From an uncultured Bdellovibrio sp. (GTDB lineage: Bacteria; Bdellovibrionota; Bdellovibrionia; Bdellovibrionales; Bdellovibrionaceae): a DNA stretch of 64,000 nt. The notes under the pieces were generated by a model. The model was not told where the DNA came from, ran no database searches, and worked only from the letters and a program-made list of their open reading frames with translations. The DNA is taken from contig CAWVRN010000001.1 in the NCBI GenBank assembly GCA_963932905.1, positions 507,391 through 571,390 of the forward strand. The letters are read 5' to 3'. This document shows, piece after piece, positions 16,226 to 35,781 of this stretch. Made by a program: the position numbers and the translations under genes. The first letter of the stretch is position 1; the number at the start of each line of letters is the position of its first letter.

Positions 16226-16302
16226 GGGGGTGTAGCTTAGTTGGTTAAAGCAATCGGCTCATAACCGATGGATCCGGGGTTCAAGTCCCTGCGCCCCTAC
16301 CA
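16226..16302 (+). tRNA. tRNA with CAT anticodon (tRNA-Ile2 or elongator tRNA-Met); ICE target
   Basis: Cloverleaf: acceptor GGGGGTG/CGCCCCT, anticodon arm ATCGG-CTCATAA-CCGAT, T loop TTCAAGT, encoded CCA; lacks initiator features; position after rpoD favours Ile2. Confidence 0.95.
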
Positions 16303-16323
16303 ATTTTATCGTTACCTGAACTT
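16273..16323. repeat. Left attachment junction (tRNA arm + CTACCA core + element arm)
   Basis: Core CTACCA 16297-16302; element arm TTACCTGAACTT 16312-16323 is the exact reverse complement of 61681-61692. Confidence 0.85.
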
Positions 16324-18964: not shown

Positions 18965-19000
18965 AATTACACCTCCTATTTTTAATATTTTTTTTGTATT

Positions 19001-19951: not shown

Positions 19952-20241
19952 GGGGCCACCTTTTCTTGACCCGCGATAGGGACAAGAACAAAATTTCCGA
20001 GTTCAATTTGGCCATCAACTAAACCGGCCTCGCGCCATTCTAAAATATAATTGGAACTCAATTTATCTTTTAGGCTATCAGGAATTTTAAAGTCTGATCC
20101 AATATTCACCTGACGGATTCTAACTTGGCAGCTTGTTGTACCGACTAAAACGGTCCTTGCTCCTTCAGGGTTTCCGCACTTTGGTTTGCTGGCACATGAT
20201 GCCAATAGACTCAATGAGATACACAAAATAAGTTTACTCAT
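19948..20241 (-). CDS. Small T4SS lipoprotein (VirB7/TraV-like)
   Basis: Lipobox LASC; inside transfer operon. Confidence 0.55.
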   Translation of the reverse strand: MSKLILCISLSLLASCASKPKCGNPEGARTVLVGTTSCQVRIRQVNIGSDFKIPDSLKDKLSSNYILEWREAGLVDGQIELGNFVLVPIAGQEKVAP

Positions 20242-21893
20242 GAAGCCTTCCTATTTTGTTCAGTCAAAATATGGCTCATGACGTTTTCTGGAGTATTCTG
20301 CGCTATCACCAGCGCTTCTTTATCCGTCTCGATTTTTTTGGCTATGCTTACCGGTTCTGATTTTTTTATTTTCGGAATAACTGGTTTATCCAAATCAAAG
20401 GATTTTTTAAACTTTAGCCGAATTGGTAGACTTCCTTTTTCGTGCGGTAGAATTAGAACAGCTTCACCGATACCCATTGTTTGTTTAAAGATGTTAGGAT
20501 GAAACTTGAATTCTTCAACATCACGCACCGATCCATCACCAGTCTTTTCTGAACCAAAAAGACTTTGCTTTTGCCGTTCGGTAACTTTTGATCCTTCGCA
20601 GGTGCCAATGACTTCTGAAAAATAGCTAGCCGACTCCGGCTCATTGGTTCGCATGAATACCTTTAAGTTGGAATTGGTCAGTATGGTATTCATGACGCCA
20701 TCACCAAGGGCCTTCAAATCACCAAGGGCTTGATGGGCAAACACAATTCCGACATTGGCACTTCGCGATTTATTTAAAAGTGTTACAAACCCCGGCGTTA
20801 GGTACTCCGTAAAATCATCCAGATAAACTGAAAAGAATTTCTGGCCTTGGTATTTCCCAAGATGCCTTGAGCCCACAGCGCTTTGTAAACACTGAAGAAT
20901 CATTTTCCCGGTGGCTTTACCAAGTGTTGGAATCTTTAGGGCCGGAAGTTGGCAGTATACGATTTCGCCGTTTTCAAGCGCCTGCTCAAGATTAATATCC
21001 GAGTTTTCGCTATTAAAAATACCAGCTGACTCACCAACAGTAAAACTTTGCAGCTGCGCAACTAAGCCGCTTGTTCTTTGTTCGCGCTCTTCGCGTGTTA
21101 GCTTTAGGAAATCTTTAGACCAGGATTGCAATCTTTCGTTTTTCGACTCTGCTGCTAGCTCTGATAATACCTTTTCATTCTTAAGACACTCAATGACCCG
21201 GTACGGAGTCGCTTTGATTTTCGACGCTTCTAAAATCATTAGACAATGCAGAAAAGCATCGTACTGAATGCTTTTAAAGTATTCGTTTTCAAAATTTAAG
21301 GCGTTAAATACGCGCTCGGCGACTTCTAAGACCGATCCACCAGATAGGGGATTGAATGTGTGACTGATGCCTACATTACAAATTGATAAAATCCGAATAT
21401 CCTGTTCGCGGTCGTGTTTTTTTGCATAAGCGTAGAGTTTATCCAATAGATTTGAATCTGATTTACCATCTATCATCAAGAGTCCTCGGCCCTTTTTGAT
21501 ATCATCAATTGCCCAAGGCAGAATTACAGACTCTGTTTTGCCTGCGTTAGTTGTGCCGACAACTTGGGTATGCATTCGTCTAAAGGTTTGCTTTATAAAA
21601 ACAGATTTACCTTTATCTGAAATCCCAGCATAAACGGCGTCTTCATTTTCCTTTGGTTTAATGACATCATTTTCGATATCTCTTTCTTCAAAAAGCGAAA
21701 GCCATTTTTTCTTTAGCTTAATGAAAGCAATTAGAATTACTGCTGTAATCAATAAGGCAATAGCTATGCGCCACTTAAAATAAAACATTACGATCTGGAA
21801 TTTGTATTTTAGCCAAAGAACAAAAATCCCGAGCGTAACAACCAGTATTAAAAATCCTCTATCTGTCATGTCTGATCGATTATTTTCACTCAT
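20238..21893 (-). CDS. Type IV coupling protein (VirD4/TraD-like)
   Basis: Two N-terminal TMs, GTTNAGKT Walker A, IDGK, VYLDDF Walker B, KSRSA..HQ. Confidence 0.9.
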   Translation of the reverse strand: MSENNRSDMTDRGFLILVVTLGIFVLWLKYKFQIVMFYFKWRIAIALLITAVILIAFIKLKKKWLSLFEERDIENDVIKPKENEDAVYAGISDKGKSVFIKQTFRRMHTQVVGTTNAGKTESVILPWAIDDIKKGRGLLMIDGKSDSNLLDKLYAYAKKHDREQDIRILSICNVGISHTFNPLSGGSVLEVAERVFNALNFENEYFKSIQYDAFLHCLMILEASKIKATPYRVIECLKNEKVLSELAAESKNERLQSWSKDFLKLTREEREQRTSGLVAQLQSFTVGESAGIFNSENSDINLEQALENGEIVYCQLPALKIPTLGKATGKMILQCLQSAVGSRHLGKYQGQKFFSVYLDDFTEYLTPGFVTLLNKSRSANVGIVFAHQALGDLKALGDGVMNTILTNSNLKVFMRTNEPESASYFSEVIGTCEGSKVTERQKQSLFGSEKTGDGSVRDVEEFKFHPNIFKQTMGIGEAVLILPHEKGSLPIRLKFKKSFDLDKPVIPKIKKSEPVSIAKKIETDKEALVIAQNTPENVMSHILTEQNRKAS

Positions 21894-22839
21894 ATTCATC
21901 ACCTCCATCTTGTAGTTTTAAAGAACCACTTAAAACAGCGTCACATTCAGTGCCTGTTTTAAGTTCGATCCATTCACGTTCTGCTTTTAATTTTTCGCCG
22001 TAAGACTGCGCGCGGGCTTGAGCCGTTGCAGCGACCGCTCCAAGGAGTCCGTTTTCAATGCCGCCCTTGGATCGCCCAAGAACATCTGTTTCCATTGAGC
22101 CTTGAGCAAGACCGCCAACAAAGGTCGTAATAATTTGACCGGCCGTATTCTTGACTCCATCTGAAAAGACTCGACCGATGACACCTGGCTGACCGTCTTT
22201 ACTTAAAGCACTGCCCGCGATCTTTCGAATTTTTCCACTGGGCAAAGATATCTGACTAAACCTAATCTGCGCTCGATCTGTGCCTTTTTGAAAGCTGGCC
22301 TCACCATAAAAACGAGTTCCCGCTGATAAACGCAATCCCGACTCAGTGACTGAATCTAGAATTAGCTCGGCTAACACGGGTACTGATTCCTGCGAAACAA
22401 TAACGTTATCAATTAATCGAAGCGGGAGTCTTTCACCAGCGCGAAGTTGAGTTTTAGCATTCTGACCACTTCCAACGATCATCGATGTATTGTAGTTCAC
22501 TTCATTTCCACCACGCGGAACCGAAAACGAATTGACCGGAGGCCCCCATAAATTTTGAGCTGAACTTGCTTGTGTGGATCTATCTGACGGAGAACTTGAG
22601 TCTTCGTTGGTCTTTGCTTTTTCAATTTTTTCTGTAAACTCAACAGGAACCTCTGTCGGTAAGATAAAAACAACAGAAATAAATAAAACTAAGCCGATGA
22701 CTGCCATATTCCGAAAGGCCTTGAAATTAAGATCCTTTTTCTGACTGACTTCATTTTCTTTAATAAAAATTGATTTTATTTTTAAAAAGAAATTTTTTAT
22801 CCCGCTAAAGATATTTTTTATTTTAGATATTACTTCCAT
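21886..22839 (-). CDS. VirB10/TrbI-like core protein
   Basis: TM, low-complexity linker, GTRFYGEA, RAQIRF, DGQPGVIG. Confidence 0.75.
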   Translation of the reverse strand: MEVISKIKNIFSGIKNFFLKIKSIFIKENEVSQKKDLNFKAFRNMAVIGLVLFISVVFILPTEVPVEFTEKIEKAKTNEDSSSPSDRSTQASSAQNLWGPPVNSFSVPRGGNEVNYNTSMIVGSGQNAKTQLRAGERLPLRLIDNVIVSQESVPVLAELILDSVTESGLRLSAGTRFYGEASFQKGTDRAQIRFSQISLPSGKIRKIAGSALSKDGQPGVIGRVFSDGVKNTAGQIITTFVGGLAQGSMETDVLGRSKGGIENGLLGAVAATAQARAQSYGEKLKAEREWIELKTGTECDAVLSGSLKLQDGGDEYE

Positions 22840-23540
22840 AACGCAACCTCGGAAATAGATATTGAATTCGTTTTTGAACCTTTCAATTCGACGCGAATGG
22901 GTTTTCCTTTAACCAGATCAGATCGTGCAATGGATACACCGATTTTAAGAGGTTTATCCATTGTTAATTTTGTACTTGATAAAAAAAGGCTATTAACAGT
23001 TTTTGAATTGTCACCTTGAAATACCCATACGTCTTCTGGTTTAATTGTCACAAACTCGTTTGGTTTTAGTTTCAGCGACAAATCAAGTAGAACAAAGTCA
23101 TATTGAGAAATACCAATTCGTTCAATTACTAAAATCAAACCGTTTGCATCGCTTGATTTTCCCGATTTCTGCCATCGTACTTGTGAATTTGCACCATCTC
23201 TGAATGACGACAGAATATATACAATATAGTCAGCCGAATCCTGGGTAAGAGTTTGGAGCCGAATATTGTATCGCTTTTTATCGGCCACCAGATATAAATT
23301 GGTTTTGGCACTTCCTCTAAGGGGCTTTATCGTCACAGCCTTATCAAGATATTCAATCTTGAATGCCGATTGATCACCAATGATTGCCGACTGAATGGTT
23401 TCCGGAAGCTGAATGATGGTTGCAATCCCAAGAGCCGTTCTCACTGTTAATATTTGATCGTCACTGTAAACAACTTTTCTTATGTGCGCCGACACACAAA
23501 GTGAAAAAACAGAAACTATGATAAATATAGAATACCTCAT
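22830..23540 (-). CDS. VirB9/TrbG-like core protein
   Basis: Signal peptide, TIIQLPETI..IIGD, IKP...TNL. Confidence 0.75.
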   Translation of the reverse strand: MRYSIFIIVSVFSLCVSAHIRKVVYSDDQILTVRTALGIATIIQLPETIQSAIIGDQSAFKIEYLDKAVTIKPLRGSAKTNLYLVADKKRYNIRLQTLTQDSADYIVYILSSFRDGANSQVRWQKSGKSSDANGLILVIERIGISQYDFVLLDLSLKLKPNEFVTIKPEDVWVFQGDNSKTVNSLFLSSTKLTMDKPLKIGVSIARSDLVKGKPIRVELKGSKTNSISISEVALWK

Positions 23541-24133
23541 CGCGCAGCCTCTTCAGTTTCTTTTGATATATAAACGCCCCAAGGATTCACGATGGTGCGA
23601 TCATCCGTGCCGAAGTGAAAAATGAGTTTCATTTCGGTTGCGGCTTTCAGATTATCAAACTCTGTAATACGATCAGCAAGAACCGTGACCTTTTTTTCTT
23701 TTAGATCAACAGTAATATTCTTTGGATAAACTCGCTGTTTCACTTTCTTTTCGCGAACAAATTTTTGCACTTCGAGCATTGATTTTTCAAAGGCTTGAAC
23801 CAATGACGGAACGACAAAAAACTTTGCTTTACCGAGGGATTCATTAATTGTTTTTTCATCCCAAGAGTATCGATAACTGACATATTCCTTAACCGCAGAT
23901 TCGATTTGAAGATCTGTGATTTTTGTTTCAACTTTTGCAACGGCGCCTGTGCTATCTAAAGCGATAACAAGCGGTCCTTGCTTCACAAGATAGAGCACAA
24001 GCAAAACTTGCAGGAACGTAATGGCAAGAAGGCCCCCGCAAAGATACTTAATATTAAAGTTTTCTGTGGCAAACTGCTGCATGGCTTTTGGGTAGAAACT
24101 CGTTTGTAGCGTGATTTTTTTATTTGTATTCAT
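23537..24133 (-). CDS. VirB8/TraK-like protein
   Basis: Single TM, C-terminal R...NPWGVYI. Confidence 0.7.
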   Translation of the reverse strand: MNTNKKITLQTSFYPKAMQQFATENFNIKYLCGGLLAITFLQVLLVLYLVKQGPLVIALDSTGAVAKVETKITDLQIESAVKEYVSYRYSWDEKTINESLGKAKFFVVPSLVQAFEKSMLEVQKFVREKKVKQRVYPKNITVDLKEKKVTVLADRITEFDNLKAATEMKLIFHFGTDDRTIVNPWGVYISKETEEAAR

Positions 24134-24147
24134 AATGACACCTCCTT

Positions 24148-25023
24148 CTAAGACCCTTTGGGTCTAAATGTTGATTGAATGTTTTGAAATTTCTGACTTG
24201 CATAAGATCTTGTATTTGAAATCATTTCGCGTGATACCTGATGAACAGTGGCAATTCGGGTCGGCAATGCCACGGCAGCTAGTGCCGCAGTAGTTCCAAT
24301 TGTTTGCGCGGTAGCCTGAACACCTTCGCCGATGAGGGATCGCACAATCATTGGAGTAAAAAGCATTGCAATAGCAATGACAAAGTTCATCACGATCAAA
24401 GTTAAATATGATCCATCAGTTTGATAGATGTTTCCAAATGAGAGTGATGTGAGCATTGCCGACATAATCGCCCATATCACCTTCCATAGCGCCACTTCTA
24501 TTAAGCCCTTATAAAGATTTGCTGTAATCCCTGCTGTTTTTGGAAAGACATAGCAGAGAATCATGAGCGGCGCGCAGACCGACAAAAGCACCCAATAAAA
24601 ATAATAAAGCGCAACTGTGATGTAGCGTGCGAGCAGCAAAAGCAAAAAGCTTCCAAAGCTGAGTATGGCCATAAAAAGATCATCAAATTTCAGAAGCAAC
24701 ACGTTTTTTGCGACCGCATAGCTTCTGGATTTTTCTTCTGCCATTCGCATGAAGGTTTCAATTCCAGACATATTGTCAATTTTAAGAGCGAGCCCGTCAC
24801 AAATATCTAGAATCAAATTTGAAACTTCTGGAAATGAAGCCAGCAGCAAAGCCGCAACGAACGATCTTTTTATAATGTCTGGATAATTTGAATCACCAGA
24901 TTTTAAATACCCAAACACTACTGAAAATAAAACAGCCACCGGCAGCATGATATAAAATAAATTACTCAGGCCGTGATGAAGGTCTTTAACTAGTGATCCT
25001 AAAACTTCTAGATTTGGAGTCAT
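24148..25023 (-). CDS. VirB6-like polytopic membrane protein
   Basis: Multiple TMs, position in T4SS operon. Confidence 0.7.
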   Translation of the reverse strand: MTPNLEVLGSLVKDLHHGLSNLFYIMLPVAVLFSVVFGYLKSGDSNYPDIIKRSFVAALLLASFPEVSNLILDICDGLALKIDNMSGIETFMRMAEEKSRSYAVAKNVLLLKFDDLFMAILSFGSFLLLLLARYITVALYYFYWVLLSVCAPLMILCYVFPKTAGITANLYKGLIEVALWKVIWAIMSAMLTSLSFGNIYQTDGSYLTLIVMNFVIAIAMLFTPMIVRSLIGEGVQATAQTIGTTAALAAVALPTRIATVHQVSREMISNTRSYASQKFQNIQSTFRPKGS

Positions 25024-25721
25024 TGGCCACCTCCGATTCTTGGCAGCCTTGTGTCCTTCGGAAGGCTGCCAAAGCCTCGGGATAGCCCCTGATAGTTTTC
25101 TTGGAAGTTTTGGGTCGCAAGTTTCTCTTTTCTAGTATCATAGGCCATATTTTGAGCCATGATTTTTAGCATTTGAGATTGCGTCCGCAGTAGCTGAGTC
25201 GAAACACCGATCAAAACCGCGAGTGCCTGATTCTGAAGTTTCCCGGCCCCTTGGGGACTAACCACTTGCGCATGAAACAAAATTTTATCTCGTTCGACAT
25301 CAACTTGGTCGGCGTAGTCGTACAAATTTCTGTTCATTGAAATGACTTCAGCAACGCTTTGATCTTGCGATCGCATAAGGTCTTCATCCATGCCGCTTGG
25401 AACAACTCCATACACCGATTGAAGAGCCCTTAGAACGGCATCAGCATTATTCAAATTACCATAGACCCCAGGGTTAAAATTGGGATTAATAATTCGAATC
25501 AAGTCAATGCCGCTCCTGACTCCCGCGTTTATGTCGCGCATGAGATCTAAAGTGTCCTTTCCGTTTTCAAGGACGTTTTTTAAAGTAATGACGGTCTGAA
25601 TGGCCTGAGCTAAGATTTGAGTCAGCACCACAACATCACCTCCGAAGAGGTCCGCTTTCGCGGATCTTGGGCCAATAAAAATTATCGCTGCAATTATCAT
25701 CGCAGAAAATTTATTTTTCAT
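25020..25721 (-). CDS. VirB5/TrbJ-like protein
   Basis: Signal peptide, helical Gln-rich, between virB4 and virB6. Confidence 0.6.
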   Translation of the reverse strand: MKNKFSAMIIAAIIFIGPRSAKADLFGGDVVVLTQILAQAIQTVITLKNVLENGKDTLDLMRDINAGVRSGIDLIRIINPNFNPGVYGNLNNADAVLRALQSVYGVVPSGMDEDLMRSQDQSVAEVISMNRNLYDYADQVDVERDKILFHAQVVSPQGAGKLQNQALAVLIGVSTQLLRTQSQMLKIMAQNMAYDTRKEKLATQNFQENYQGLSRGFGSLPKDTRLPRIGGGQ

Positions 25722-28189
25722 GACGCGACCGATTTTGAGAAATTTTGGTAGGCCACTCCAAATGGCGCAAGTTCGCTAGCTTTTATTAAGGCATCTTCTA
25801 ACGATAATCCATCCGACTTTAGCGATTCTAGAAACTGATTGTCGCGGGCATCTGATGTAGAAACCCAATATTCCAATGGTGATGGCTCGATACGAATAAC
25901 TTGCCTTGATTCACCCTCCATCAAAAAGCCTTCACTAAATTGACCTTTGCGCTGCTCAAGACTTTGTATCAATCGCAGTTCCTGGGAATTTAATTTTAAA
26001 GCGTCGCGCAGAACAGCGGTGTCGCCCTTTTGAAGCATGACAAGTTTTGTAGCTGTATTATTTAAAATCGCTGGTCCCATTCCGCTTGCAATAATCTCTT
26101 CCACGCCTTGGGTAATAAAAGTGATTCCGCTGCCAGTTTTCCTAAAGGTACGGGCTGCATATTCCATAAAGGAACTGGCCGCAGGACTCTTCAATAGGTC
26201 CCATGCCTCATCGAGCAAGACTCGTTTTGGAATGGTCCGCTCGGCTTCCACTTGTTCCAAAATAAAATTAGTCAGAATCAAAATCATCACAGATTGTAAA
26301 TCTGGATATTGCGATAGCCCCTTTAAATCAAAGGCAACGATTGGTCTATCCGCTTCAATTTTGCCAGCACCATCCAGCAACTTTCCATAAGGCGTTTTGC
26401 CGGTCCAAGGAAAAAGCATTTTACCAATGCGCTTCAAAGATTCGTCGTTATGGCTAAGACAATACTTAGACAAATCGGAAAGTTTTGGTGACCGCGCTTG
26501 ATTTTCACCACGAACTGAATCAAATACTGCTGTAAGTGCTGCTTCTAACTGGACACGGTCAAATCTGGATAATTTCTCGCCGCTATCAACGACCATTTGC
26601 TCAATCACACTAACAAGACTTTTAATGCGCTCGCCAGTTGGCGGAGCTGATGGGTCGCGAAGTTCAAATGGGTTAATGATATATTCGCCGGTGAGATTAA
26701 TTTCAAAATACTGACCGCCCAGAACTCGAGTCATTTTTTTGTAAGAGCCGCCGATGTCGATAATATACACCCTAGTGCCACGGGCTATTTGCTGAAGCAT
26801 TAAAAAATTGTTGGCAAAACTTTTTCCAGATCCGCTTGAACCTGTAACTAAAGCGTTAAAATTACTAAGCCTGGCCGAATAGGAATTCATTGAATATAAA
26901 GTCCCTAGTCTTGTTTTTAAGAGGCATACTGGTTTTTCATCACCAGTGGCCGCGCCAAAGAGTGGGAAAAAATCGACCAGATTGTTTGTTTTCAACTTTT
27001 TAGATCTTACCAAATTCACCGGTGCCAGCGGCAAATCTGATTTAAATACTTTCCATGCGCCCACGGTCTCTTGAATTCCTTCAGATCCACTGAGCGTTTT
27101 AAATTTAGCTAAGACTTCTTTTGTGTGAAGATTAAGCTTTCGAGCACCGGCTGCTGAATTTTCTTCGCGAATAACAATCATAAGTTGGGCTTGAAAAATT
27201 CTTTGCCCAGTTTCAATAATCTCACGAATCAAATCAGTCGTTTGCGATAGGCGCGATTCACTTTCTAAATCTGAAACCCTATTTCCACTGTTTGCTGATA
27301 GGGAGTGTGCCATTCGCCGCTTTTGGTCAAGCCCCTTCATTTCCTTTGATTGGTCGGGGACGTTGAATGACAAAAATAGTTCATACTTAAAAGGTAAAGC
27401 CAAAAAGCCACTCATCATTCCCGCAAATGTCATTTCCGGAAGTGTCTTAAGCGTTAGAACTCTAGTTTTTTGACTATCAAGAGTAAAGTCTTCTTGATCC
27501 AGCACCAAATCCCCAAAAACAAGTTGTTCTCGCGGTGAATTTCCCTCTATTGCAATACTATTGCAATTTACTTTTGGCGCACCAATTGAGGAAGACCGTT
27601 TAGGGTTCAGATAGCGGTACAATAAATTAATAAAATCATCTTTAGTCAATTCAGACGCTAAAAAACCAAGTGATGAAAGAGATCCTTTTGCGCCCTCTAG
27701 GGACTGCGACAAGGTTTGCAGCTGATCTTCGTATCCTTTTTCAAATTCAACTGAGAACTTTTTTGTTTGCCCTAATGAAAATGAATTTGGTTTTTGCCTC
27801 TGGCTGGTCTTTATAAAAAAGAATAATCTTGGCCTAAATAATTCTCCATCTTCAGTTTGTTTTAATAAAACATTCGATCTCTTTTGATCGAGCGCGCAAA
27901 GAAACTTATTCTCTGTCGTTAATAGATCGACATGCCTTTTAATGACGCCGCCAACATCAGAATCATTGACCACCATAAACTGAGCTGTAACACCTTCTGG
28001 TAAGGAGTTAGCAAATGAACGCAGTCCGAATGCAAGTTGATTGATACGAGCTTCATCGAAGCACTCAATATCTAACGGCAATAACTCTAATCCTGACGAA
28101 AGCGATCCATCGCAAAGAATCGCATGTGATACAGGTTTTGATTCAATTTCCCAAAACGGCAGTTGTTCGCATAATGATGCCTGGTTCAT
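25718..28189 (-). CDS. virB4: VirB4/TraC conjugation ATPase
   Basis: GSSGSGKS, IIDIGGSY, INPF, LLDEAW, ARTFRK, ITQ. Confidence 0.93.
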   Translation of the reverse strand: MNQASLCEQLPFWEIESKPVSHAILCDGSLSSGLELLPLDIECFDEARINQLAFGLRSFANSLPEGVTAQFMVVNDSDVGGVIKRHVDLLTTENKFLCALDQKRSNVLLKQTEDGELFRPRLFFFIKTSQRQKPNSFSLGQTKKFSVEFEKGYEDQLQTLSQSLEGAKGSLSSLGFLASELTKDDFINLLYRYLNPKRSSSIGAPKVNCNSIAIEGNSPREQLVFGDLVLDQEDFTLDSQKTRVLTLKTLPEMTFAGMMSGFLALPFKYELFLSFNVPDQSKEMKGLDQKRRMAHSLSANSGNRVSDLESESRLSQTTDLIREIIETGQRIFQAQLMIVIREENSAAGARKLNLHTKEVLAKFKTLSGSEGIQETVGAWKVFKSDLPLAPVNLVRSKKLKTNNLVDFFPLFGAATGDEKPVCLLKTRLGTLYSMNSYSARLSNFNALVTGSSGSGKSFANNFLMLQQIARGTRVYIIDIGGSYKKMTRVLGGQYFEINLTGEYIINPFELRDPSAPPTGERIKSLVSVIEQMVVDSGEKLSRFDRVQLEAALTAVFDSVRGENQARSPKLSDLSKYCLSHNDESLKRIGKMLFPWTGKTPYGKLLDGAGKIEADRPIVAFDLKGLSQYPDLQSVMILILTNFILEQVEAERTIPKRVLLDEAWDLLKSPAASSFMEYAARTFRKTGSGITFITQGVEEIIASGMGPAILNNTATKLVMLQKGDTAVLRDALKLNSQELRLIQSLEQRKGQFSEGFLMEGESRQVIRIEPSPLEYWVSTSDARDNQFLESLKSDGLSLEDALIKASELAPFGVAYQNFSKSVAS

Positions 28190-28509
28190 AATTCACCCCC
28201 TTTGTTAAATTTTCGATATTGAAAATCTTGTGAGTTGGCCGAGAAAACAGTTGGCGAGATAAGATGCTCAAAATAATGTTGCAGAAACTGATCAGGTTTT
28301 CCTTTCTTAAAGAAAAACAAAATCAAAAAGAGTCCAAGACTTGTTCCAAAAACCATTGGAATCTTCATCGAGGTCGATCCAAAAATTAAATTTTGAACTG
28401 ACAAATTTAAAAGCAAGATCAATACGTCTGACAGCTCCAGACCCAAAATTTTATTTTTTGTTTCTAGTGTTCTTGGGACCGATGAGGTCAATAGATTAAA
28501 ATCACTCAT
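28186..28509 (-). CDS. VirB3/TraL-like membrane protein
   Basis: Two TMs, KGKP motif, directly upstream of virB4. Confidence 0.65.
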   Translation of the reverse strand: MSDFNLLTSSVPRTLETKNKILGLELSDVLILLLNLSVQNLIFGSTSMKIPMVFGTSLGLFLILFFFKKGKPDQFLQHYFEHLISPTVFSANSQDFQYRKFNKGGEL

Positions 28510-28793
28510 TAGCGCACCGTCTGCGATATAAAATCAACAATCGCCTGTGCGCCAAAACCGATGATACTACCAAGAATCGCATACCACATATGCGTCTTGG
28601 CTTTTTCATTGCCGCTCATCAAACTAAAAGCCGCCCATGCAATTCCAATAATAGAAAGTGTCGGTAAAATAACTCGGGTCAATTTCGTCTGAATTCCCAT
28701 TAATGAAGACTCAACACTTGCAAGTCCAAGCTCTGGAACGATCAATAATGCTGCCGTCAGCATAAAAATAAATAAATATGATTTTCTGTTCAT
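28509..28793 (-). CDS. VirB2/TrbC-like pilin
   Basis: AGGAGG RBS, signal peptide plus two hydrophobic helices, IIGFGAQAIV. Confidence 0.8.
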   Translation of the reverse strand: MNRKSYLFIFMLTAALLIVPELGLASVESSLMGIQTKLTRVILPTLSIIGIAWAAFSLMSGNEKAKTHMWYAILGSIIGFGAQAIVDFISQTVR

Positions 28794-28818
28794 AAATGTA
28801 CCTCCTGTGTTAGTTGTT

Positions 28819-29232
28819 TTAAGATGCAAGGCTGTCCTCCAGTCCCTCTGATTTTTCCGGAAACAAGCAAAGGAAAATATTTTCTGGGATTAGCTGAATT
28901 CGTAGCGCAATAAAACTTCCAGCTAGTTTTCCTTCACCGATTCGATACCAGCTTGATTTCATTTCGCCTGTCGGTAATTGGTATTCTTCAAGACTGAGGA
29001 CAACGTACTTGGTATCATCATTGTCATCAGGCAGTATGAAATATTGAGTATTTGGGTGTGTGAATAGTTTAAGGCGAAATTTTTTAGATCCTGCTTTTAA
29101 ATACGCTACGCCAACGCTTTCACCTTCAATGACTTCACCTGATGAAGTCATTTCCCCAGTATAAACGCCATATTTTTCTGATTTACGAATAGGGATCACA
29201 TTACTAAATGAAAAATCGCTAGATTTATTCAT
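28819..29232 (-). CDS. Hypothetical beta-rich protein (DUF736-like ssDNA-binding candidate)
   Basis: Tandem VGVAY / WYRIGEG pattern, acidic tail. Confidence 0.4.
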   Translation of the reverse strand: MNKSSDFSFSNVIPIRKSEKYGVYTGEMTSSGEVIEGESVGVAYLKAGSKKFRLKLFTHPNTQYFILPDDNDDTKYVVLSLEEYQLPTGEMKSSWYRIGEGKLAGSFIALRIQLIPENIFLCLFPEKSEGLEDSLAS

Positions 29233-29480
29233 GCTGAAAACCTTTCCATTTCAAACATTTCAACGACATCCTCCGTCCAGCCACATTCTGAGCAGGTTAG
29301 ATAGCCGTTTTGAAAATCGGTAAGACCAGAACATTCTGGACAGCATTCACCATCATCAGGAGCACCAGATTTTTTAAAGTTAAGGTAACGTCGCTTTAAC
29401 GTCGGACTTGGTTTGCGACGCTCAATAAGTTCTCGTTCTGTGCGATAGATATCGCGCTTATCTTTTAAAGTTCTAGACAT
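29229..29480 (-). CDS. Small zinc-ribbon protein
   Basis: CPECSG...CSECGW; GGAGG RBS. Confidence 0.65.
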   Translation of the reverse strand: MSRTLKDKRDIYRTERELIERRKPSPTLKRRYLNFKKSGAPDDGECCPECSGLTDFQNGYLTCSECGWTEDVVEMFEMERFSA

Positions 29481-29689
29481 TAGAAATTCCTCCATTGGTT
29501 TTCTTCATGGGTTTTGCGAAATGGCTTTGACTCTAGTCGCTCCCAATCGCGTACGGTTAAATCAGCAGCTGAAAACGATTTTTTTAATCTTTCCCAAAAA
29601 CTGATAGGTTCGGCTTTCTCAAGCGTAACAAGCGACAGATTCAATTCCGGCTGAGCTTGGCTACTTTTAAATTTTTCTCTTGCATTCAT
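29480..29689 (-). CDS. Hypothetical first gene of transfer operon
   Basis: 69 aa, AGGAGG RBS, coupled to the next gene. Confidence 0.6.
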   Translation of the reverse strand: MNAREKFKSSQAQPELNLSLVTLEKAEPISFWERLKKSFSAADLTVRDWERLESKPFRKTHEENQWRNF

Positions 29690-29801
29690 AGATGCACCTC
29701 CTTGGTAATTTGTTAGTGAGTTCGTTCAACTGCGAACGACCTTTCACCTTTATAAATTGCAAGTTGGAGACATCTCGGGCGTGGCACGACCGAATTGGGA
29801 G

Positions 29802-29950
29802 CAAGTGATTGATTTGAAAATGAATTTTGGAATTTTTGTAAGTGAACGAATTCATGCAAGGGTGGCGAATGGTCGCCACCCTTGGTTTTCAAGAAGTATT
29901 GAATTTTTAATGTGTTAGCTTAAAAAACAAAGACTGGCGGGGTTCCGCCA
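29802..29950. promoter_or_regulatory. Putative enhancer region: two TGGCG-N6-CGCCA palindromes plus IHF box
   Basis: Palindromes 29863-29878 and 29935-29950; minus-strand AATCAATCACTTG at 29802-29814 fits WATCAANNNNTTR. Confidence 0.55.
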
Positions 29951-30004
29951 TGGTGGAACTTAAAATTTGCCAGTTAGTAGGAATAACGTTGAATTTGATT
30001 TTAG

Positions 30005-31561
30005 TTAGCGAACAACTATAGGGATTTCAGCGATCTGGCTTTTTGGAATTAAATAGACTCCGTATTGAATGCAGGACGCACGAACGTCATCATTGTCGAA
30101 GTGGCCAGTCACAAGGCACCTGATCGCGGCCTCAGGCATATCCTGAAGCCATTTAAGACCGGTGTCTCCGTCTCCCAAGTCGTAATCAAAAAGTAAAGTG
30201 CAATTGTCGGGTTCACTATCGATTTCGTGCTTGATAGGTAATAGCTCGTTGCCATGGCTCATGAACTTAGTTTGCTTTAGTAACTGGGTATCATCGAACT
30301 TCAATTGCCATAAAGCGCGCCCGGACTCTTGGTCATCAAGTACATATATTTTTGAGTCAGAATTAAATTTAAGTCGTGGCAAATACCATTTCGCTCGGTC
30401 ATTGACTGGTAGTCGTATTGTCAGAGTCGATCCTAAACCGAGGCTTGAATTAACTTCAATTGAACCACCCCACGCTGATAAGAATTCTTTCGCATGCCAA
30501 AGGCCGACACCAGTCCCATTTTTTTTGCCAAACGAAAAATCTTTATCGAAAATATTTGGTTGAATTTCTTTTGCAATCCCGCATCCAGTATCTGCAACAA
30601 TAATTTCAACTTCAGCTCCCAAATCTCTGCACCTGATATTGATTCGGCCAGCATTGTTCATTGCCTCTATTGAATTTGTAACTAAGTTTCCTAAAATGGA
30701 TCGCATCTCAACAGGAATATGAGTAGCCAAAGTCGATAAAATCATATCATCGATTTCAAAATGAAAATCAATTCCCTTTGGTACATATAAATCGAGCTCC
30801 CGTCGGGCCTGAACGAGAGTTCCATAAATGTCAGTTTTAGTTTGATCTGAAAGTTCCTCAGTTTTCGTATCGTCAAGTTTGGCAACTAAATCTTTTATTT
30901 GATTTATTGTAACCTGAAGCAAATCTTTATCTTTTGCCACACTAGACGGCAAGCGACCAGGAATTCGCATCAAAGCGGCCAGCGGAGTTCGTAAGTTATG
31001 TCGAACCTGGTGCGCTAGTTCGCTTTTAGCGACCTTTTTTTGTAGTTCGAGATCCCGATGAAACTGCTCGACCAATCGTTTTCTCATAAATCTGGTTTGG
31101 GGAATAGAAACCAGATTTAAAATTAACCAAATGAAAAATGCATAAGAAACAAATCTAAATCGTGAATACTCATAGATAATTGTATCGGCTGGTCCATCAC
31201 TTAGTTCGTTTGAAATTGTAGTTGAATATTCATCTGATGAAAACGCTTTCCAAAAAGTCTTTTTGCCTTCAAGTTCTGCGCTTGGTGGCAAAATGAATGA
31301 GCGATCAGGTACCGTAGATTTGTACCTGATACTTATAAATTTCGAAAGTCTTGCTTCTTGCAGAATCAAAGAGGTTTCTCGAAAATCACCAACTTTAACG
31401 AAACGAGACAACAGCTTAGTATTATCCTCAGCGACTGATTGAATATACAACGTATTAGAAATCAATGCCAACCCGAAAAAAATCAATAGGACCAAAGCAG
31501 ACACAACAATTTGCCGATTTTCAAAATCTTTAATTCTAGTCTCGGGAGTCATCGCAGTCAT
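30005..31561 (-). CDS. Hybrid sensor histidine kinase
   Basis: Two TMs, HNLRTPL H-box, NLVTNS, DTGCGI, GTGVGL, C-terminal receiver (LDD, FDYD, VTG, PK). Confidence 0.92.
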   Translation of the reverse strand: MTAMTPETRIKDFENRQIVVSALVLLIFFGLALISNTLYIQSVAEDNTKLLSRFVKVGDFRETSLILQEARLSKFISIRYKSTVPDRSFILPPSAELEGKKTFWKAFSSDEYSTTISNELSDGPADTIIYEYSRFRFVSYAFFIWLILNLVSIPQTRFMRKRLVEQFHRDLELQKKVAKSELAHQVRHNLRTPLAALMRIPGRLPSSVAKDKDLLQVTINQIKDLVAKLDDTKTEELSDQTKTDIYGTLVQARRELDLYVPKGIDFHFEIDDMILSTLATHIPVEMRSILGNLVTNSIEAMNNAGRINIRCRDLGAEVEIIVADTGCGIAKEIQPNIFDKDFSFGKKNGTGVGLWHAKEFLSAWGGSIEVNSSLGLGSTLTIRLPVNDRAKWYLPRLKFNSDSKIYVLDDQESGRALWQLKFDDTQLLKQTKFMSHGNELLPIKHEIDSEPDNCTLLFDYDLGDGDTGLKWLQDMPEAAIRCLVTGHFDNDDVRASCIQYGVYLIPKSQIAEIPIVVR

Positions 31562-32367
31562 TGATCACCGCTTATTTTTGAGACTTTGTACTTTGATATT
31601 TTTAGCGGAGCAGATTTCAAAATTGGGATATCAAAATAGTTTAATTCTACTGATACAAGATCCGGTAAAAAAGATTTGTGCAATTCATCTACTGAGATAG
31701 TGCCGAGCAAAGGGCTGATTTTTGATATGAATTCTCTAGAAATCTGCCATGGCACGCTTGAAACGGATTCATTAGGTCCATTTTTATTTTTTAACCAACA
31801 AAAACTCGGAATCGACTCTAAAAATGATCGTCGCTGCGAAGTTTCCATTGATTCTGACAGTGCAAAGCCAAAAGATATTCTCTCGGCATCTGAAATCTGA
31901 CAAACCAAACCAAATAGGCTATTTGGCGTTGCCATTTGAAAAAAACGGACTTCACAGTCTTTATTCATATCTAAAAAGCTATTGGGCGAAAGAATTTTAG
32001 ATTTTACTTCACGAAGTGGTATCTCATTCTCTAGATGCTCATTTAAATAAAATCTTTCTAAGGCTTCAAATTTTGCGTGAGATTCAGGGCAATGACTTCC
32101 GCCAGAAACCGCTAGTCCGATGGAATCAACACTTTTTGAGACACAAATGATTCTCTCAATACATTCAGCCACTGATTTTTCAAAGGCAATTTCACGATTA
32201 TCGTCAACGCCGCAACCCTCGATTTCAATTCCTTGCCAGGTAATCTTTGTGGAAAAATCAAATAATCCGGGTACAAGTTCGCCTGAACCTTTAAATTCTG
32301 TAAAGGTAGGTGCAAGCACGGATCGATTTAGATAAAGCCATGTGGCTAACGGAGTTTTATGCGCCAT
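31558..32367 (-). CDS. Compact YcaO-like protein
   Basis: GCG..A..KS.AECIER, SIGLAV..AKFEALER, third FG..SFLE motif; 269 aa, no C-terminal PxP. Confidence 0.65.
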   Translation of the reverse strand: MAHKTPLATWLYLNRSVLAPTFTEFKGSGELVPGLFDFSTKITWQGIEIEGCGVDDNREIAFEKSVAECIERIICVSKSVDSIGLAVSGGSHCPESHAKFEALERFYLNEHLENEIPLREVKSKILSPNSFLDMNKDCEVRFFQMATPNSLFGLVCQISDAERISFGFALSESMETSQRRSFLESIPSFCWLKNKNGPNESVSSVPWQISREFISKISPLLGTISVDELHKSFLPDLVSVELNYFDIPILKSAPLKISKYKVSKISGDQ

Positions 32368-33884
32368 AATTGATTATTTGCATAGAGTTCAGATAATTCG
32401 ATCTTCCATGGCTTTCTTACTAACGCTGCATAAGGCAGAGCCATCAATGGTACAACGGTTGGCCTAGTAAGAGCATCAAAATGCAGCTCCTTAAGTTTTT
32501 TGATTCGTTTTTCTTTGTCATCGGTAGCCATATAATGGGCTAGCCATTGCGCGCGATCATGTTTATTCAGACCCAGCACACCAGAATTGAGTGAATATGA
32601 AATAAGTCCTATGTCTTCCATAAAGCCAGTATCAGTGAATCCAATAAAAGCGTGCGGAGTGTCTTCAGGTTGAAGATCATTTTTGAAATCAGGAATATAC
32701 CCAATCAAACTCGCATCCACTTGTGGTAAAAGTTCTTTGATAGGAGTTGCCCATTCCTCGAGAGTGCCTCGGCGGATAATTCCAAGTTGAATTTTTTGAT
32801 TCGGTTCTGTTGTTTCGTTGTCTAATTCCATTTTAAAGCGATTTTGTTGCTCGGCATTTAGCCCACCCTCACTTAGGTTTGGAAAAAATTCAGACCGTTG
32901 CTCAACACCAGCAACTCCATTATATATTTTATTGAATGCGATTTGCATCTTTTTACCGATATAGCGTCGTTCTGCTGAACTAAATTCTTTTTCGCCTTTT
33001 TGGGTAAAAACTAAGACAAGCGTTCTAATTTTCATCGTCACTAGAAGGTCAGTATCTGAATTTTTTTGTGCAAAATTAATTACGTCCTCTGGCTTGGATG
33101 CATCTATTGTCGTAAGGTGATCTACAATCCCATTTGTAAAAGCAGCTAAACTATTAGTTCCAGATTTAAGATCCGTTGGAATAAAAAAGATTTTATTTGC
33201 AACATCGTCTGTTGCAAAATAATGATTTGGATTTTTTAGTAATTGAATTTTTCCATTTCCGTCGTCGCTATCAACTGAATAGGGGCCACTAGTTTCGCTA
33301 TAATTTATGATTTTAAGCGATATAGGATCAGCACTTGATTTTGGAATGATCGCAAAATCAATCGCCCCGAGCATTGGTAACAAAAATGATTTTTTACCTT
33401 TCGCATTTAGGAAAACTGAATTGCCCTCTTGTCTGATCCCAGGACATTCTTCTTCGGTAGATTTAATCACAATTCCTGGGCAGACTATATCTCGAAAATT
33501 TCCATGTGTGTTACCCGAAAGGACTAAAAGCCGTTTAAGAGAAAAAACAACATCAGTAGCGGTAATACTTTTTCCTGAAATAGTTTTAAGACTGTCTCTA
33601 ATAGTGAGTTTAAGTTCGTCACCAATCCATTCGACCTTTTCTGCTACGCCCGGCTCGACAGAGCCACTTGCTGAGATTTCAACAAGTGGCGAGTAAACAT
33701 TTTCCAAAAATATATATTCATAATCAAAATTTATATTAGTTGGCTCGTAGGCTGTTGACTTGAGTCGCACTGGAAATGCGACTCTTAGAGTTTTATTTTG
33801 TTGTTGTACTTTCATAGAAACAGCTCCTCCGAGCATCAGTAAAATAGATAGGACAATAATAGTTTTTATTTTATTTATTGTCAT
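32346..33884 (-). CDS. Orphan family-5 (OppA-like) solute-binding protein
   Basis: YSPLV, PGVAEK, ITATDVVFSL, TSGPY, L.KNPNHY; N-terminal anchor. Confidence 0.85.
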   Translation of the reverse strand: MTINKIKTIIVLSILLMLGGAVSMKVQQQNKTLRVAFPVRLKSTAYEPTNINFDYEYIFLENVYSPLVEISASGSVEPGVAEKVEWIGDELKLTIRDSLKTISGKSITATDVVFSLKRLLVLSGNTHGNFRDIVCPGIVIKSTEEECPGIRQEGNSVFLNAKGKKSFLLPMLGAIDFAIIPKSSADPISLKIINYSETSGPYSVDSDDGNGKIQLLKNPNHYFATDDVANKIFFIPTDLKSGTNSLAAFTNGIVDHLTTIDASKPEDVINFAQKNSDTDLLVTMKIRTLVLVFTQKGEKEFSSAERRYIGKKMQIAFNKIYNGVAGVEQRSEFFPNLSEGGLNAEQQNRFKMELDNETTEPNQKIQLGIIRRGTLEEWATPIKELLPQVDASLIGYIPDFKNDLQPEDTPHAFIGFTDTGFMEDIGLISYSLNSGVLGLNKHDRAQWLAHYMATDDKEKRIKKLKELHFDALTRPTVVPLMALPYAALVRKPWKIELSELYANNQLWRIKLR

Positions 33885-33891
33885 AAAAATT

Positions 33892-34197
33892 TTACTTAGT
33901 TTTAGCTTCAGACGCAGACGCAGCCCCAGGACCACCGCCAAAGCAAACTGTAGTTGGATGCACACCACCCCTTTGAATTTGACCCTCAGCTTCAAGTAAA
34001 CTCAAAATATCTTGATCAAAACTGACACACTGGTTTTCTGAAACACTCAGTGTTTTCGTTTCACCAAGTAGCTTAATCGCCCATGCGATTTGAGTAAGCT
34101 GAAGTGGAGTGAGTTTTTTTGCCTGGGCTTCATCAGCAAAGCTAGATGAGCCGATTCCCAACATTCCTGCAATCATGATTAATAACGTTTTTTTCAT
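33892..34197 (-). CDS. Small secreted protein, candidate signalling/RiPP precursor
   Basis: Sec signal (SFA|D), two Cys, C-terminal GGVHPTTVCFGGGPGAAS; ATGA overlap with activator gene. Confidence 0.65.
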   Translation of the reverse strand: MKKTLLIMIAGMLGIGSSSFADEAQAKKLTPLQLTQIAWAIKLLGETKTLSVSENQCVSFDQDILSLLEAEGQIQRGGVHPTTVCFGGGPGAASASEAKTK

Positions 34198-35585
34198 TCT
34201 TTTTCCCCCTGTAAAAGTTCACGTTTAAGTTCAATTCCATATTTTTTCATTTTTTCTCTGACAGTACTGCGACTGATATTCAGCAATCGTGAAGCTGCTG
34301 AAATCGATCCACTTTCTTCGATAGCTTTTAAAACTATATTTTTCTCATCTGCCATCTGTGTGAATTTTAAGGTTTCCAAATCCACTTTTTTTCTTGAAAC
34401 TAAATTTGGATCTTTTCGATCTTTAAGTAATTCAATTTCAAGATGCGGCCCATTTGAAAGGTTTGTCAAAAATCGAATACCGTGTTCAAGTTCCCTAACA
34501 TTGCCCGGCCAACTGAGTTTTTTAAGTTGATCAACAGATGATTCGAGCAGAATTAGTTCTCGGCCTTGTTCTAAGTTGGCTATTTTTAAAAAATGCTGCG
34601 CCAATATAGGAATATCTTCTGGGCGCTCGCGCAATGGTTTGATGTGAATTGGAAGCACGTTAAGCCTAAAGAACAAGTCTTCACGAAAAAGATTTCGCTC
34701 AATTAGATTTTCTAATGGTGCATTTGTCGCGGCAACAAGTCGAAAATCAACTTTTTTTGTTTCGTTAGAGCCTACAGGCATTATCGTTTTTTCTTGCAAC
34801 ACCCGAAGCAAACTTGCTTGCAAATGTTTTGGTAATTCACCGATCTCATCAAGAAATAGTGTCCCACCATTGGCGGCCTCAAAATATCCAGTTCGATCTT
34901 TCGCAGCACCAGTAAACGATCCTTTTTCATGGCCAAAGAGTTCACTCTCAAAGACACCGGCTGAAATGCTAGCAAGATTGACTGGGATGAATGGTTTATT
35001 TGCTCTTGAAGAGGCACTATGAATAGCTCTGGCAACTTTTTCTTTTCCGGTGCCCATTTCACCACGAATTAGAACTGTGTCATTAGATGGGCCAAATTTT
35101 AGAATAAGACGTGCAACCTCAGCCATAGCCTCGGATACTCCAATCATGCCAATTGATTCAATCAGCTTTTGATTGTCACTGTGACTAGAAATTGAAACAG
35201 GTTTCGTGCGTTTTTCAACTTCACGGCAAGCTCTGTGCAAAATACTTAACAATTTCGCCTCGCCTATATCCTTTTCAATAAAAAATACGGCACCAGACTC
35301 TAACGAGTCATTGTGCGCATCCACAGAGTCATCACCTGAGAGTCCAAGTACGGTAAGATTTGGATTATGTTCTTTTAATTTTTTAATTGTTTCTGGCCCT
35401 TTGACGTCGGGCATATGGTAGTCAATTAACGCAAGTGAAAATGGGATTAGTTTTTGCCTAACAATGGCAATGGCTTCATCGCCGCTTGAAACAGACTTCA
35501 CGAAAAAGCCTTCGTCTTCAAGAAAAGAACCCATGGCTTTTCTAAAAACTGCATCGTCATCGACCAAAAGGATATTGTGCTTCAT
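34194..35585 (-). CDS. NtrC-family sigma54-dependent response regulator
   Basis: REC, GEMGTGKE, ESELFGHEKGSFTGA, LFLDEIG, WPGNVREL, Fis HTH. Confidence 0.95.
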   Translation of the reverse strand: MKHNILLVDDDAVFRKAMGSFLEDEGFFVKSVSSGDEAIAIVRQKLIPFSLALIDYHMPDVKGPETIKKLKEHNPNLTVLGLSGDDSVDAHNDSLESGAVFFIEKDIGEAKLLSILHRACREVEKRTKPVSISSHSDNQKLIESIGMIGVSEAMAEVARLILKFGPSNDTVLIRGEMGTGKEKVARAIHSASSRANKPFIPVNLASISAGVFESELFGHEKGSFTGAAKDRTGYFEAANGGTLFLDEIGELPKHLQASLLRVLQEKTIMPVGSNETKKVDFRLVAATNAPLENLIERNLFREDLFFRLNVLPIHIKPLRERPEDIPILAQHFLKIANLEQGRELILLESSVDQLKKLSWPGNVRELEHGIRFLTNLSNGPHLEIELLKDRKDPNLVSRKKVDLETLKFTQMADEKNIVLKAIEESGSISAASRLLNISRSTVREKMKKYGIELKRELLQGEKE

Positions 35586-35597
35586 TCCGGCGCCCCC

Positions 35598-35696
35598 TCC
35601 GTAAATTCACATAAAACTACTATTACAAATACGGTGCCCAAACATTTTACAGATAATTAAGCATTAGACTTAATGTGATTGATCTGAATTTACGGA
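35598..35696 (-). promoter_or_regulatory. sigma54-like promoter inside a 12-bp inverted repeat overlapping the RBS
   Basis: TGGGCACCGTATTTGTA (minus, 35624-35640); TCCGTAAATTCA 35598-35609 / TGAATTTACGGA 35685-35696. Confidence 0.45.
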
Positions 35697-35781
35697 AGGC
35701 CAAAAATTGGGTAAAAAAATTGAAGAAAGTTCATGGTCAATATGCACCTGGTGTTGTTGAAACAAATTTTCCAATTACAGT

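Follow-up and report, generated by a model that had tools for sequence, protein, structure and literature searches.

What does a protein of the YcaO fold do inside a two-component sensor operon, next to the transfer genes of a mobile element? The question is raised by a five-gene cassette on the minus strand of a 64,000-nucleotide (nt) stretch of DNA from an uncultured Bdellovibrio sp. (assembly GCA_963932905.1, contig CAWVRN010000001.1, positions 507,391 to 571,390). This whole stretch is hereafter the window, and coordinates are counted from its first letter. An original prediction, made from the letters alone, had read the cassette as a YcaO-linked peptide quorum-sensing circuit that controls conjugation. 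The five open reading frames (ORFs) on which that prediction was built are all present on the minus strand and tightly packed:

34194..35585, minus strand: NtrC-type response regulator and sigma-54 activator, 463 amino acids (aa), from its Pfam domains
33892..34197, minus strand: 101-aa precursor of a predicted small secreted protein, candidate YcaO substrate and signal, no family match
32346..33884 (longest ORF to 33995), minus strand: orphan periplasmic substrate-binding protein (SBP) of the OppA/NikA class, 512 aa from Met38, from its match to Pfam SBP_bac_5
31558..32367, minus strand: minimal YcaO-fold protein (mini-YcaO), 269 aa, from fold and profile matches; probably cytoplasmic, no signal peptide being visible by eye
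30005..31561, minus strand: hybrid sensor histidine kinase, 518 aa, with two hydrophobic segments, an H-box, HATPase_c and a C-terminal receiver, from Pfam and fold

Neighbouring genes overlap by 4, 22 and 4 nt, the last of these between the YcaO and kinase genes, and the one remaining junction is a 7-nt gap from the precursor stop codon to Met38 of the SBP. A transfer operon begins 316 nt downstream, so that the adjacency described in the prediction holds. What had been observed was thus confirmed and its interpretation is partly supported; that the cassette serves quorum sensing and the control of conjugation is something we infer. The explanation we tentatively favour, its whole chain standing at somewhat less than an even chance, is a five-component signalling module that mobile elements of Bdellovibrionota carry, integrative conjugative ones among them.

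The order regulator–precursor–SBP–YcaO–kinase is kept in 15/15 related loci where the contig supplies the DNA, and it recurs across the phylum. Because of this recurrence the five-gene order is far beyond chance. The mini-YcaO itself was found in 132 of the 401 Bdellovibrionota genomes sampled. A search of the phylum returned 29 new loci, each with 1.5-kb flanks; the SBP gene lies upstream and the kinase gene downstream of the mini-YcaO gene in 26, one has the SBP gene only, and two read regulator–YcaO–kinase. The window's own genome (G000) holds four copies, namely this one, one in a complete element on contig 22 (C22), and two distant, nearly identical ones on contigs 30 and 56. In the comparison with L002, the closest relative, identity is 89% for the regulator, 70-94% for the transfer proteins, 76% for the SBP, 74% each for kinase and precursor, and lowest, at 57%, for the YcaO. 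The YcaO differences are concentrated in the C-terminal half of the protein; those of the kinase are spread out and not confined to the sensor.

The fetched DNA includes transfer genes at 8/15 close loci and 8/20 deep loci, seven of the latter being homologous to the window operon and one of the TraU/TraK type. Other contexts are island-like, with restriction-modification genes, DarT-Macro, transposases, recombinase fragments or the dnaG-rpoD neighbourhood (L052, L054, L063). A tie between the cassette and transfer genes therefore appears supported by the recurrent synteny, by a divergent, rearranged copy elsewhere in the genome and by a common palindrome, which is described below.

In environmental datasets, groundwater, freshwater, wastewater and biofilm metagenome contigs contain up to 66% of the sampled words of window positions 29400-35800. 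Moreover, short contigs of 90-99% likeness, from three wastewater metatranscriptome runs belonging to two studies, cover stretches of each of the five genes; these were not counted as evidence of expression, since no control stretch was compared and DNA carry-over is possible.

Is the 269-aa protein a YcaO at all? The name cannot be read from a family scan, as Pfam (even at E 10), NCBIfam (E 0.01), PHROGs and a single-sequence search of the PDB gave zero matches; it is fold and profile searches that uphold this part of the prediction. A profile of the close family (A1) returned a chance match only, to glycerol dehydrogenase (E 0.96). The close relatives number 40, with lengths of 147-471 aa, and an exhaustive search reached 195 cluster representatives at E<=1e-3, most of the 150 listed being 256-342 aa long. 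From those 150, 32 distant relatives were chosen by hand, of which 29 match Pfam YcaO (PF02624) at E<=1 and 25 exceed its gathering score. A 35-sequence profile (A2) finds the solved YcaOs MJ1094 (5.6e-13), McbD (2.6e-8), TruD (1.8e-4) and M. kandleri YcaO (1.4e-3).

The structural comparison points the same way. An AlphaFold2 model built from 24 sequences (predicted local distance difference test, pLDDT, 88.5; predicted template modelling score, pTM, 0.86) has as its best Foldseek match the M. kandleri YcaO 6ci7 (E 4.6e-8), onto which VIA-align places 239/269 residues at Z 16.9 and a root-mean-square deviation of 3.7 Å. Ranks 1-14 of VIA-align are YcaO domains throughout (M. kandleri, M. jannaschii, LynD, MusD, McbD, E. 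coli YcaO, TruD), and the first other fold, a double-stranded RNA-binding domain, follows at Z 7.6. The Atlas structure row reads 'YcaO-like family protein' (TM 0.85). The YcaO fold, on which the prediction depends, is present. Atlas rows for the short YcaO also name Verrucomicrobiota and Pseudomonadota clusters.

The acidic residues of the Mg/ATP site are in place as well. Across 35 sequences E68, E71, E101, E104 and R105 are invariant, and R72 and E184 are at least 90% conserved. When aligned with known YcaOs (McbD, LynD/TruD, M. jannaschii, M. kandleri, E. coli), 229-252 residues superpose at Z 14-17, and the two ExxER helices, the third conserved Glu and a Ser at the McbD T148 position are all kept. 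In the HMM (hidden Markov model) alignment E101 pairs with McbD E167 and S82 with McbD T148. According to the excerpted text of PMC6395948, E167 is a Mg-coordinating Glu whose loss nearly abolishes heterocycle formation, and Ser or Thr at the T148 position is typical of YcaOs associated with RiPPs (ribosomally synthesised and post-translationally modified peptides). Judged from model and alignment, the 269-aa protein is a compact YcaO-fold protein with its Mg/ATP glutamates kept. Because the metal site is conserved, we argue that it is an enzyme. In two respects its setting and size differ from those of the known YcaOs, which are of about 360-780 aa and sit in biosynthetic clusters: it has 269 aa with no direct Pfam match, and it sits in a two-component sensor operon.

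If the protein is an enzyme, the 101-aa product encoded two genes upstream is its candidate substrate. The predicted ORF and its length stand; the C-terminal end given for it, ...HPTTVCFGGGPG, does not, as the sequence goes on with AASASEAKTK to a longer terminus, ...HPTTVCFGGGPGAASASEAKTK. Pfam, NCBIfam and PHROGs assign the precursor to no family, and nothing usable came from the Atlas. Its N-terminus is K-rich, then hydrophobic, ending ...FA/DE in the window and A-x-A/D in 13 close versions. Read by eye this is a probable Sec signal, the removal of which would leave a predicted mature product of about 70-80 aa. What had been called a peptide pheromone would therefore be a small mature protein and not obviously a short pheromone.

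The 13 close precursors share the signal-like start, a well-conserved and probably helical middle and a more variable tail. Two cysteines, C57 and C85, are invariant among them. Only the C-terminal Cys is kept in the distant paralogue of the same genome and in distant relatives, where it is often the penultimate residue (ICW, ICF, RCY, ICM, ICE, ICY), and it sits 12-13 residues past a conserved Gly (G-x12/13-Cys). We surveyed tails at 19 loci, comprising 18 deep-branching ones and the distant paralogue of the window's genome. A signal-like ORF with the G-x12/13-Cys tail was found directly upstream of the SBP gene at 12 of them by script, and at L065 and L069 by eye. This fixed spacing from helix end to a single invariant Cys would look like the leader and core of a substrate for a backbone-modifying enzyme. 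Gene position, the helix–G-x12/13-Cys arrangement and the variable tail all fit a RiPP precursor; the SBP gene separates it from the YcaO gene. The caveat attached to the prediction, that a Sec signal is atypical for a YcaO substrate, is softened because bufferins are Sec-exported RiPPs. As the portion of PMC11626156 drawn on here describes them, they are periplasmic, about 60-70 aa long, and bind copper through modified Cys residues.

Docking of the YcaO with the mature precursor scored 0.44, against 0.00 for the best of three controls, with contact agreement of at least 38% and partner pLDDT of at least 43 in the runs. This was graded as weak support: the mark is passed by 116/157 solved complexes and 2/215 mismatched pairs, and at scores of 0.60 or under only 18/157 solved complexes passed, the range into which both passing mismatches also fall.

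The alternative that survives best takes the YcaO away from the precursor altogether. The SBP, kinase and regulator would sense an external cue, such as prey or recipient peptides or cell-wall fragments, the small protein would be a periplasmic accessory or inhibitor of the SBP, and the YcaO would act on or regulate the kinase or regulator, either by ATP-dependent modification or as a partner that senses ATP. Binding proteins acting as co-receptors of kinases are common (TorT-TorS, LuxP-LuxQ, ChvE-VirA, AioX-AioS), and the YcaO and kinase genes are always adjacent. Moreover, L052 and L054 keep regulator–YcaO–kinase with no precursor gene found, nor an SBP gene in L054. These two loci weigh against the explanation we favour, and because of them it may be the kinase, not the peptide, that the YcaO serves. 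Whole proteins are also known as YcaO substrates, the E. coli enzyme thioamidating ribosomal protein uL16 according to the excerpted text of PMC13063428. On the other side, the precursor with its fixed-spacing Cys co-occurs with the YcaO in 14/19 loci across deep divergence, the docking beat all three controls, if weakly, and L052 looks rearranged because a transposase gene adjoins its inverted SBP gene. We consider a kinase-directed YcaO unlikely, and yet the most serious competitor to a YcaO-modified signal.

The binding protein was borne out as OppA-like and without permease or ATPase. It matches Pfam SBP_bac_5 (E 5.9e-10, 39.2 bits, cut-off 32.4), and a scan of the ORFs from 16 to 39 kb showed no ABC permease or ATPase genes, nor did that of related loci. 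In NCBIfam it has weak NikA/OppA matches, the best being to the nickel-binding NikA type (E 3.7e-4, 19 bits against a cut-off of 600). Its start is most likely Met38 (33884), since the alignments with relatives begin only at residues 34-44, and with that start there would be no overlap with the precursor gene.

That NikA-type match bears on a further alternative, a bufferin-like metal-binding RiPP. A Cys heterocycle would chelate a metal and the NikA-like SBP would present the complex to the kinase, the whole sensing metal stress and not density. The likeness to bufferins, as far as the cited portion of PMC11626156 goes, lies in a Sec signal on a long precursor, a small mature periplasmic protein and a Cys-derived modification. 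Bufferins differ in that they rely on an MNIO/DUF2063 enzyme and serve copper homeostasis, whereas the cassette has a YcaO, a single conserved Cys and sensor coupling. Only that one Cys is conserved across the precursor family, no metal-resistance or transport genes lie by the cassette in the loci scanned, the SBP match is far under any family cut-off, and it is transfer genes and mobile elements that accompany the cassette; we therefore regard a metal sensor as very unlikely.

The two remaining proteins place the cassette among sensors that combine a binding protein with a kinase. The kinase was correctly called hybrid, although its receiver is recognised by fold alone, Pfam being blind to it. 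HATPase_c matches at E 2.1e-21 (76.8 bits) and HisKA at only E 0.043, and neither Pfam (best E 0.19) nor a PDB sequence profile (E ~1) detects a receiver. The last 125 aa nonetheless model as a receiver domain (pLDDT 92.7), for which the top Foldseek rows are almost all receivers (CKI1, DesR, Spo0F; TM 0.64-0.71), and 10 sequences agree without exception at the DD, D, T and K positions. It is because of this fold and these residues that we call the kinase hybrid. The regulator is the NtrC-type activator that had been predicted, with REC, Sigma54_activat and HTH_8 domains (Response_reg 1.2e-21; Sigma54_activat 1.5e-65; also AAA_lid_14) and a GSFTGA sequence that we take to be the GAFTGA-type loop. 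It misses every NCBIfam equivalog cut-off (best ntrC, 357.7 bits against 558.6; LuxO 1.2e-89, also under its cut-off) and is therefore not NtrC, LuxO or AtoC proper. The genome has an rpoN gene (G000:C2, 220.5 bits).

LuxP-LuxQ-LuxO, AioX-AioS-AioR and TorT-TorS are sensors that join a periplasmic binding protein to a hybrid kinase. The cassette resembles them in its orphan SBP, its membrane kinase with a C-terminal receiver and its NtrC-type activator. It differs in that its SBP is of the OppA/NikA class and in that the operon also encodes a presumed ligand and modifying enzyme.

Which promoters would such a regulator act on? The candidate sites, and the operon they precede, are as follows:

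35624..35639, minus strand: sigma-54-type promoter element GGGCAC-N5-TTGTA, about 35 nt upstream of the regulator ATG
29935..29950, no strand: palindrome 1, TGGCGG-N4-CCGCCA, which also scores as a terminator-like hairpin 3' of the kinase gene
29863..29878, no strand: palindrome 2, TGGCGA-N4-TCGCCA, candidate regulator-binding site, 72 nt from palindrome 1
29802..29814, minus strand: predicted IHF-like site AATCAATCACTTG, between the palindromes and the transfer operon, its CACTTA core conserved in aligned loci
29749..29762, minus strand: conserved TTGCAATTTATAAA block in aligned loci, candidate core promoter of the transfer operon
20238..29689, minus strand: transfer operon, from Pfam and NCBIfam, its order conserved in related loci

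The element before the regulator gene is the sole match in the window to the pattern GGCAY-N5-TTGWA. It is kept in 13/13 aligned sequences and in the C22 paralogue. In the window the -12 C is replaced by T; canonical promoters, such as TGGCACGCTGGTTGCT, stand 18-66 nt upstream of the regulator gene at 10/14 deep loci. The cassette is very probably sigma-54 dependent, to judge from these sequences, and the position of such a promoter before the cassette itself points to autoregulation by its own regulator.

For the transfer operon the result was different. The prediction had made transfer sigma-54 dependent, and no canonical promoter of this kind precedes the operon, as judged by a mismatch consensus, by GG-N10-G[CT] scans and by scans of deep loci. 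With up to two mismatches the consensus has 27 matches in the window against 27.1 expected, the pre-regulator one being the only convincing match within the element. The GG-N10-G[CT] scans upstream of the operon at nine loci gave no conserved site, and scans of five deep loci gave three marginal matches (8-9/11 positions), about as many as chance would give. A GGCAC-like block past the IHF-like site was rejected as a -24 element, as by eye its distance to the conserved TTGC varies. Aligned loci conserve TTGC(A/T)(A/T)T(T/C)TA before the operon; the TTGCAATTTATAAA block has no GG at the -24 distance and is therefore not a canonical sigma-54 promoter. The IHF-like site was predicted from WATCAANNNNTTR, which we take to be the IHF consensus.

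It is the palindromes that connect the cassette with the transfer genes. The 16-nt pattern has two matches in the window against 0.12 expected, both between the kinase gene and the transfer operon, and such a pair lies upstream of the transfer operon at 10/10 transfer-linked loci. A single palindrome stands about 225 nt upstream of the regulator gene at 10/12 related loci. In the C22 copy the cassette is inverted with respect to the transfer operon, and a common 700-nt intergenic region holds all three palindromes. The regulator would be the obvious candidate to bind them.

Two further features were noted around these sites. A conserved leader with hairpin potential precedes the first transfer ORF in all aligned loci (29700-29745, minus strand; AAGGTCGT...GAACG) and is followed by an invariant ribosome-binding region, AAGGAGGTGCAT. 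Upstream of the regulator gene, where relatives carry the palindrome, the window has a 68-aa ORF without a family (35782-35988), homologues of which lie close to the cassettes of L004 and L011 and at other places in the genome (C1:567.7 kb, C33).

Taken together, the parts would work as follows. In the cytoplasm the minimal YcaO would use ATP to activate the backbone amide beside the C-terminal Cys of the precursor, and a thiazoline at the (I/V)-Cys bond is the likeliest product, being the most economical guess. The precursor would leave through Sec and lose its signal peptide, to act as a periplasmic 70-80-aa protein or after further trimming. The orphan OppA-like SBP would bind the modified tail and dock on the hybrid kinase at its short periplasmic loop, and the kinase would set the phosphorylation state of the NtrC-type activator. 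The activator would then drive the sigma-54-type promoter recognised before the cassette, giving positive feedback, and may influence the type IV secretion system (T4SS) and transfer operon through the common TGGCGG-N4-CCGCCA sites, with read-through in addition in the window. The signal could pass from cell to cell, for quorum sensing or donor self-recognition, or could report on the cell's own periplasm. The chain is built on folds, motifs, conservation and the promoter and palindrome sequences; from these we infer the interactions and the chemistry. That it is right in its entirety, from a YcaO-modified, Sec-exported product through SBP and hybrid kinase to a regulator loop and the transfer genes, we would give a chance approaching one half.

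Several observations weigh against this chain. As for the YcaO, about 120 residues of the usual domain are missing. A Pro-rich C-terminal tail that reaches the active site is the motif of azoline-forming YcaOs (McbD P394/P396), and here the C-terminus, ...KYKVSKISGDQ, is neither conserved nor Pro-rich. No E1-like or RRE (RiPP recognition element) protein, TfuA partner or dehydrogenase was found in the cassette or in the ORFs around it, be it in the window or at related loci. Moreover, Pro187 occupies the position of McbD Q264, and in the excerpted text of PMC6395948 the Q264A change strongly lowers activity. As for the precursor, the motif-bearing ORF was not found in L058, L060, L064, L066 and L068; the tails of L058, L060 and L066 contain Cys without the spacing, and L064 and L068 have no convincing candidate. 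A periplasmic protein of 70-80 aa could not easily cross the outer membrane, which therefore speaks against a diffusible pheromone unless the product is trimmed, and we saw no sign of trimming or of an outer-membrane exit route. No Hpt gene was seen in the cassette, and an Hpt partner was not searched for. As for the output, to the missing canonical sigma-54 promoter of the transfer operon may be added that the window has no palindrome upstream of its own regulator gene, that palindrome 1 may be merely a terminator, and that the cassette stands without nearby transfer genes at 7/15 close and 12/20 deep loci.

How does the cassette compare with peptide signalling already known? Firmicutes control conjugation by peptides in pCF10, through PrgZ with cCF10/iCF10, and in ICEBs1, through PhrI-RapI. 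Those systems have an element-encoded, Sec-type peptide precursor, as the cassette probably does, and gate transfer, as it may do; pCF10 also has its own OppA-like protein. Their peptides are unmodified, imported by Opp and read by cytoplasmic receptors, whereas the cassette has no permease, a likely membrane-kinase reader, a YcaO and a Gram-negative predator host. The Agr autoinducing peptide (AIP), ComQXPA and nisin with NisRK are modified-peptide autoinducers read by two-component systems. The cassette resembles them in that it would unite precursor, modifying enzyme, kinase and regulator in one autoregulated unit, of which the regulator diverges more slowly than enzyme, precursor and sensor do. 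It differs in its enzyme family and predicted chemistry, in probable Sec export, in a putative SBP co-receptor and in a predicted sigma-54 output. No paper in the literature searched, outside which most subscription journals lie, joins a YcaO to such a circuit, in agreement with the prediction. From its sequence, the cassette looks like an undescribed kind of peptide signalling.

Nisin, which is sensed by NisK/NisR, is also the model for the weakest alternative, an autoinduced antimicrobial RiPP used by the mobile element against competitors. Thiazole/oxazole-modified microcins are classically laid out in this way, with a YcaO next to a precursor that contains Cys, and autoregulation through the sigma-54-type promoter is predicted. 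On the other side, genes for an export ABC transporter, a leader protease, immunity or a dehydrogenase were seen neither within the cassette nor beside it, there is one modifiable Cys only, and the mature product would be a 70-80-aa periplasmic protein; we regard this alternative as highly improbable.

A bolder version of the favoured signalling module would make it a peptide pheromone system of Gram-negative conjugative elements, with the YcaO-modified Cys tail of a Sec-exported and perhaps trimmed product read by the OppA-like protein and kinase and with sigma-54 activation of both cassette and transfer. We think this distinctly unlikely. Because YcaO, precursor and sensor diverge quickly and one genome holds four cassettes, co-resident elements might then each have a 'pherotype' of its own by which to distinguish self from non-self donors.

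Of the features expected of an integrative conjugative element, T4SS genes, a type IV coupling protein, a serine recombinase and a tRNA-Met were found in the element that carries the cassette; a relaxase was not recognised among its ORFs. Its left end is as follows:

16226..18101: tRNA-Met (16226-16302, plus strand, by ARAGORN) abutting a large serine recombinase gene (16281-18101, minus strand)

The transfer operon opens with small ORFs of 69, 88 (zinc ribbon) and 137 aa, followed by TrbC pilin, TraL, TraC/VirB4, a 233-aa ORF, VirB6, VirB8, VirB9, VirB10 and the coupling protein. Between the coupling protein and the recombinase (606 aa, Resolvase and Recombinase domains) lie two conserved ORFs, of 271 aa (19136-19951) and 154 aa (18542-19006), with no Pfam or PHROG family; since no relaxase was recognised in the element, one of them might serve as such. 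The tRNA-Met gene follows rpoD directly, next to dnaG-rpoD, and with the recombinase gene it probably marks the integration site. The distant cassettes of L052, L054 and L063 are also at dnaG-rpoD, beside an SNF2 helicase gene. No direct repeat of at least 14 nt from the tRNA region was found elsewhere in the window, and no attachment-site repeat of at least 10 nt links the tRNA end to 35.5-37 kb, so that the right boundary of the element was not found.

Elsewhere in G000 there are at least five further clusters of the TraL/TraC/VirB6 type (C1:360-365 kb, two places on C3, C12, C22); a cassette stands beside a transfer cluster only in the window element and in the C22 element. The junction between kinase gene and transfer operon looks like a hot spot for cargo, because other loci hold restriction-modification genes, DUF218 or transposases there. 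In L014 a DarT–Macro (DarTG-like) pair lies between the kinase gene and the transfer operon (12366-13556). A PrkA–DUF444–SpoVR trio at 4283-8970 (plus strand) of the window is ordinary chromosomal context.

In summary, the cassette is compact and open to testing, comprising five genes, a single predicted promoter and a single candidate operator. If the proposed chain is right, its YcaO would be the smallest that works, at about 270 aa and without a partner protein, and this would be the first role in signal transduction for a family otherwise concerned with antibiotic and cofactor biosynthesis. On the same condition, such cassettes may also supply orthogonal peptide-sensor pairs for synthetic biology. 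To our knowledge, conjugation has hardly been found under peptide control outside Firmicutes. A counterpart in predatory Gram-negative bacteria, present in about one third of the sampled Bdellovibrionota genomes, would give a new view of how the transfer of mobile elements is timed.

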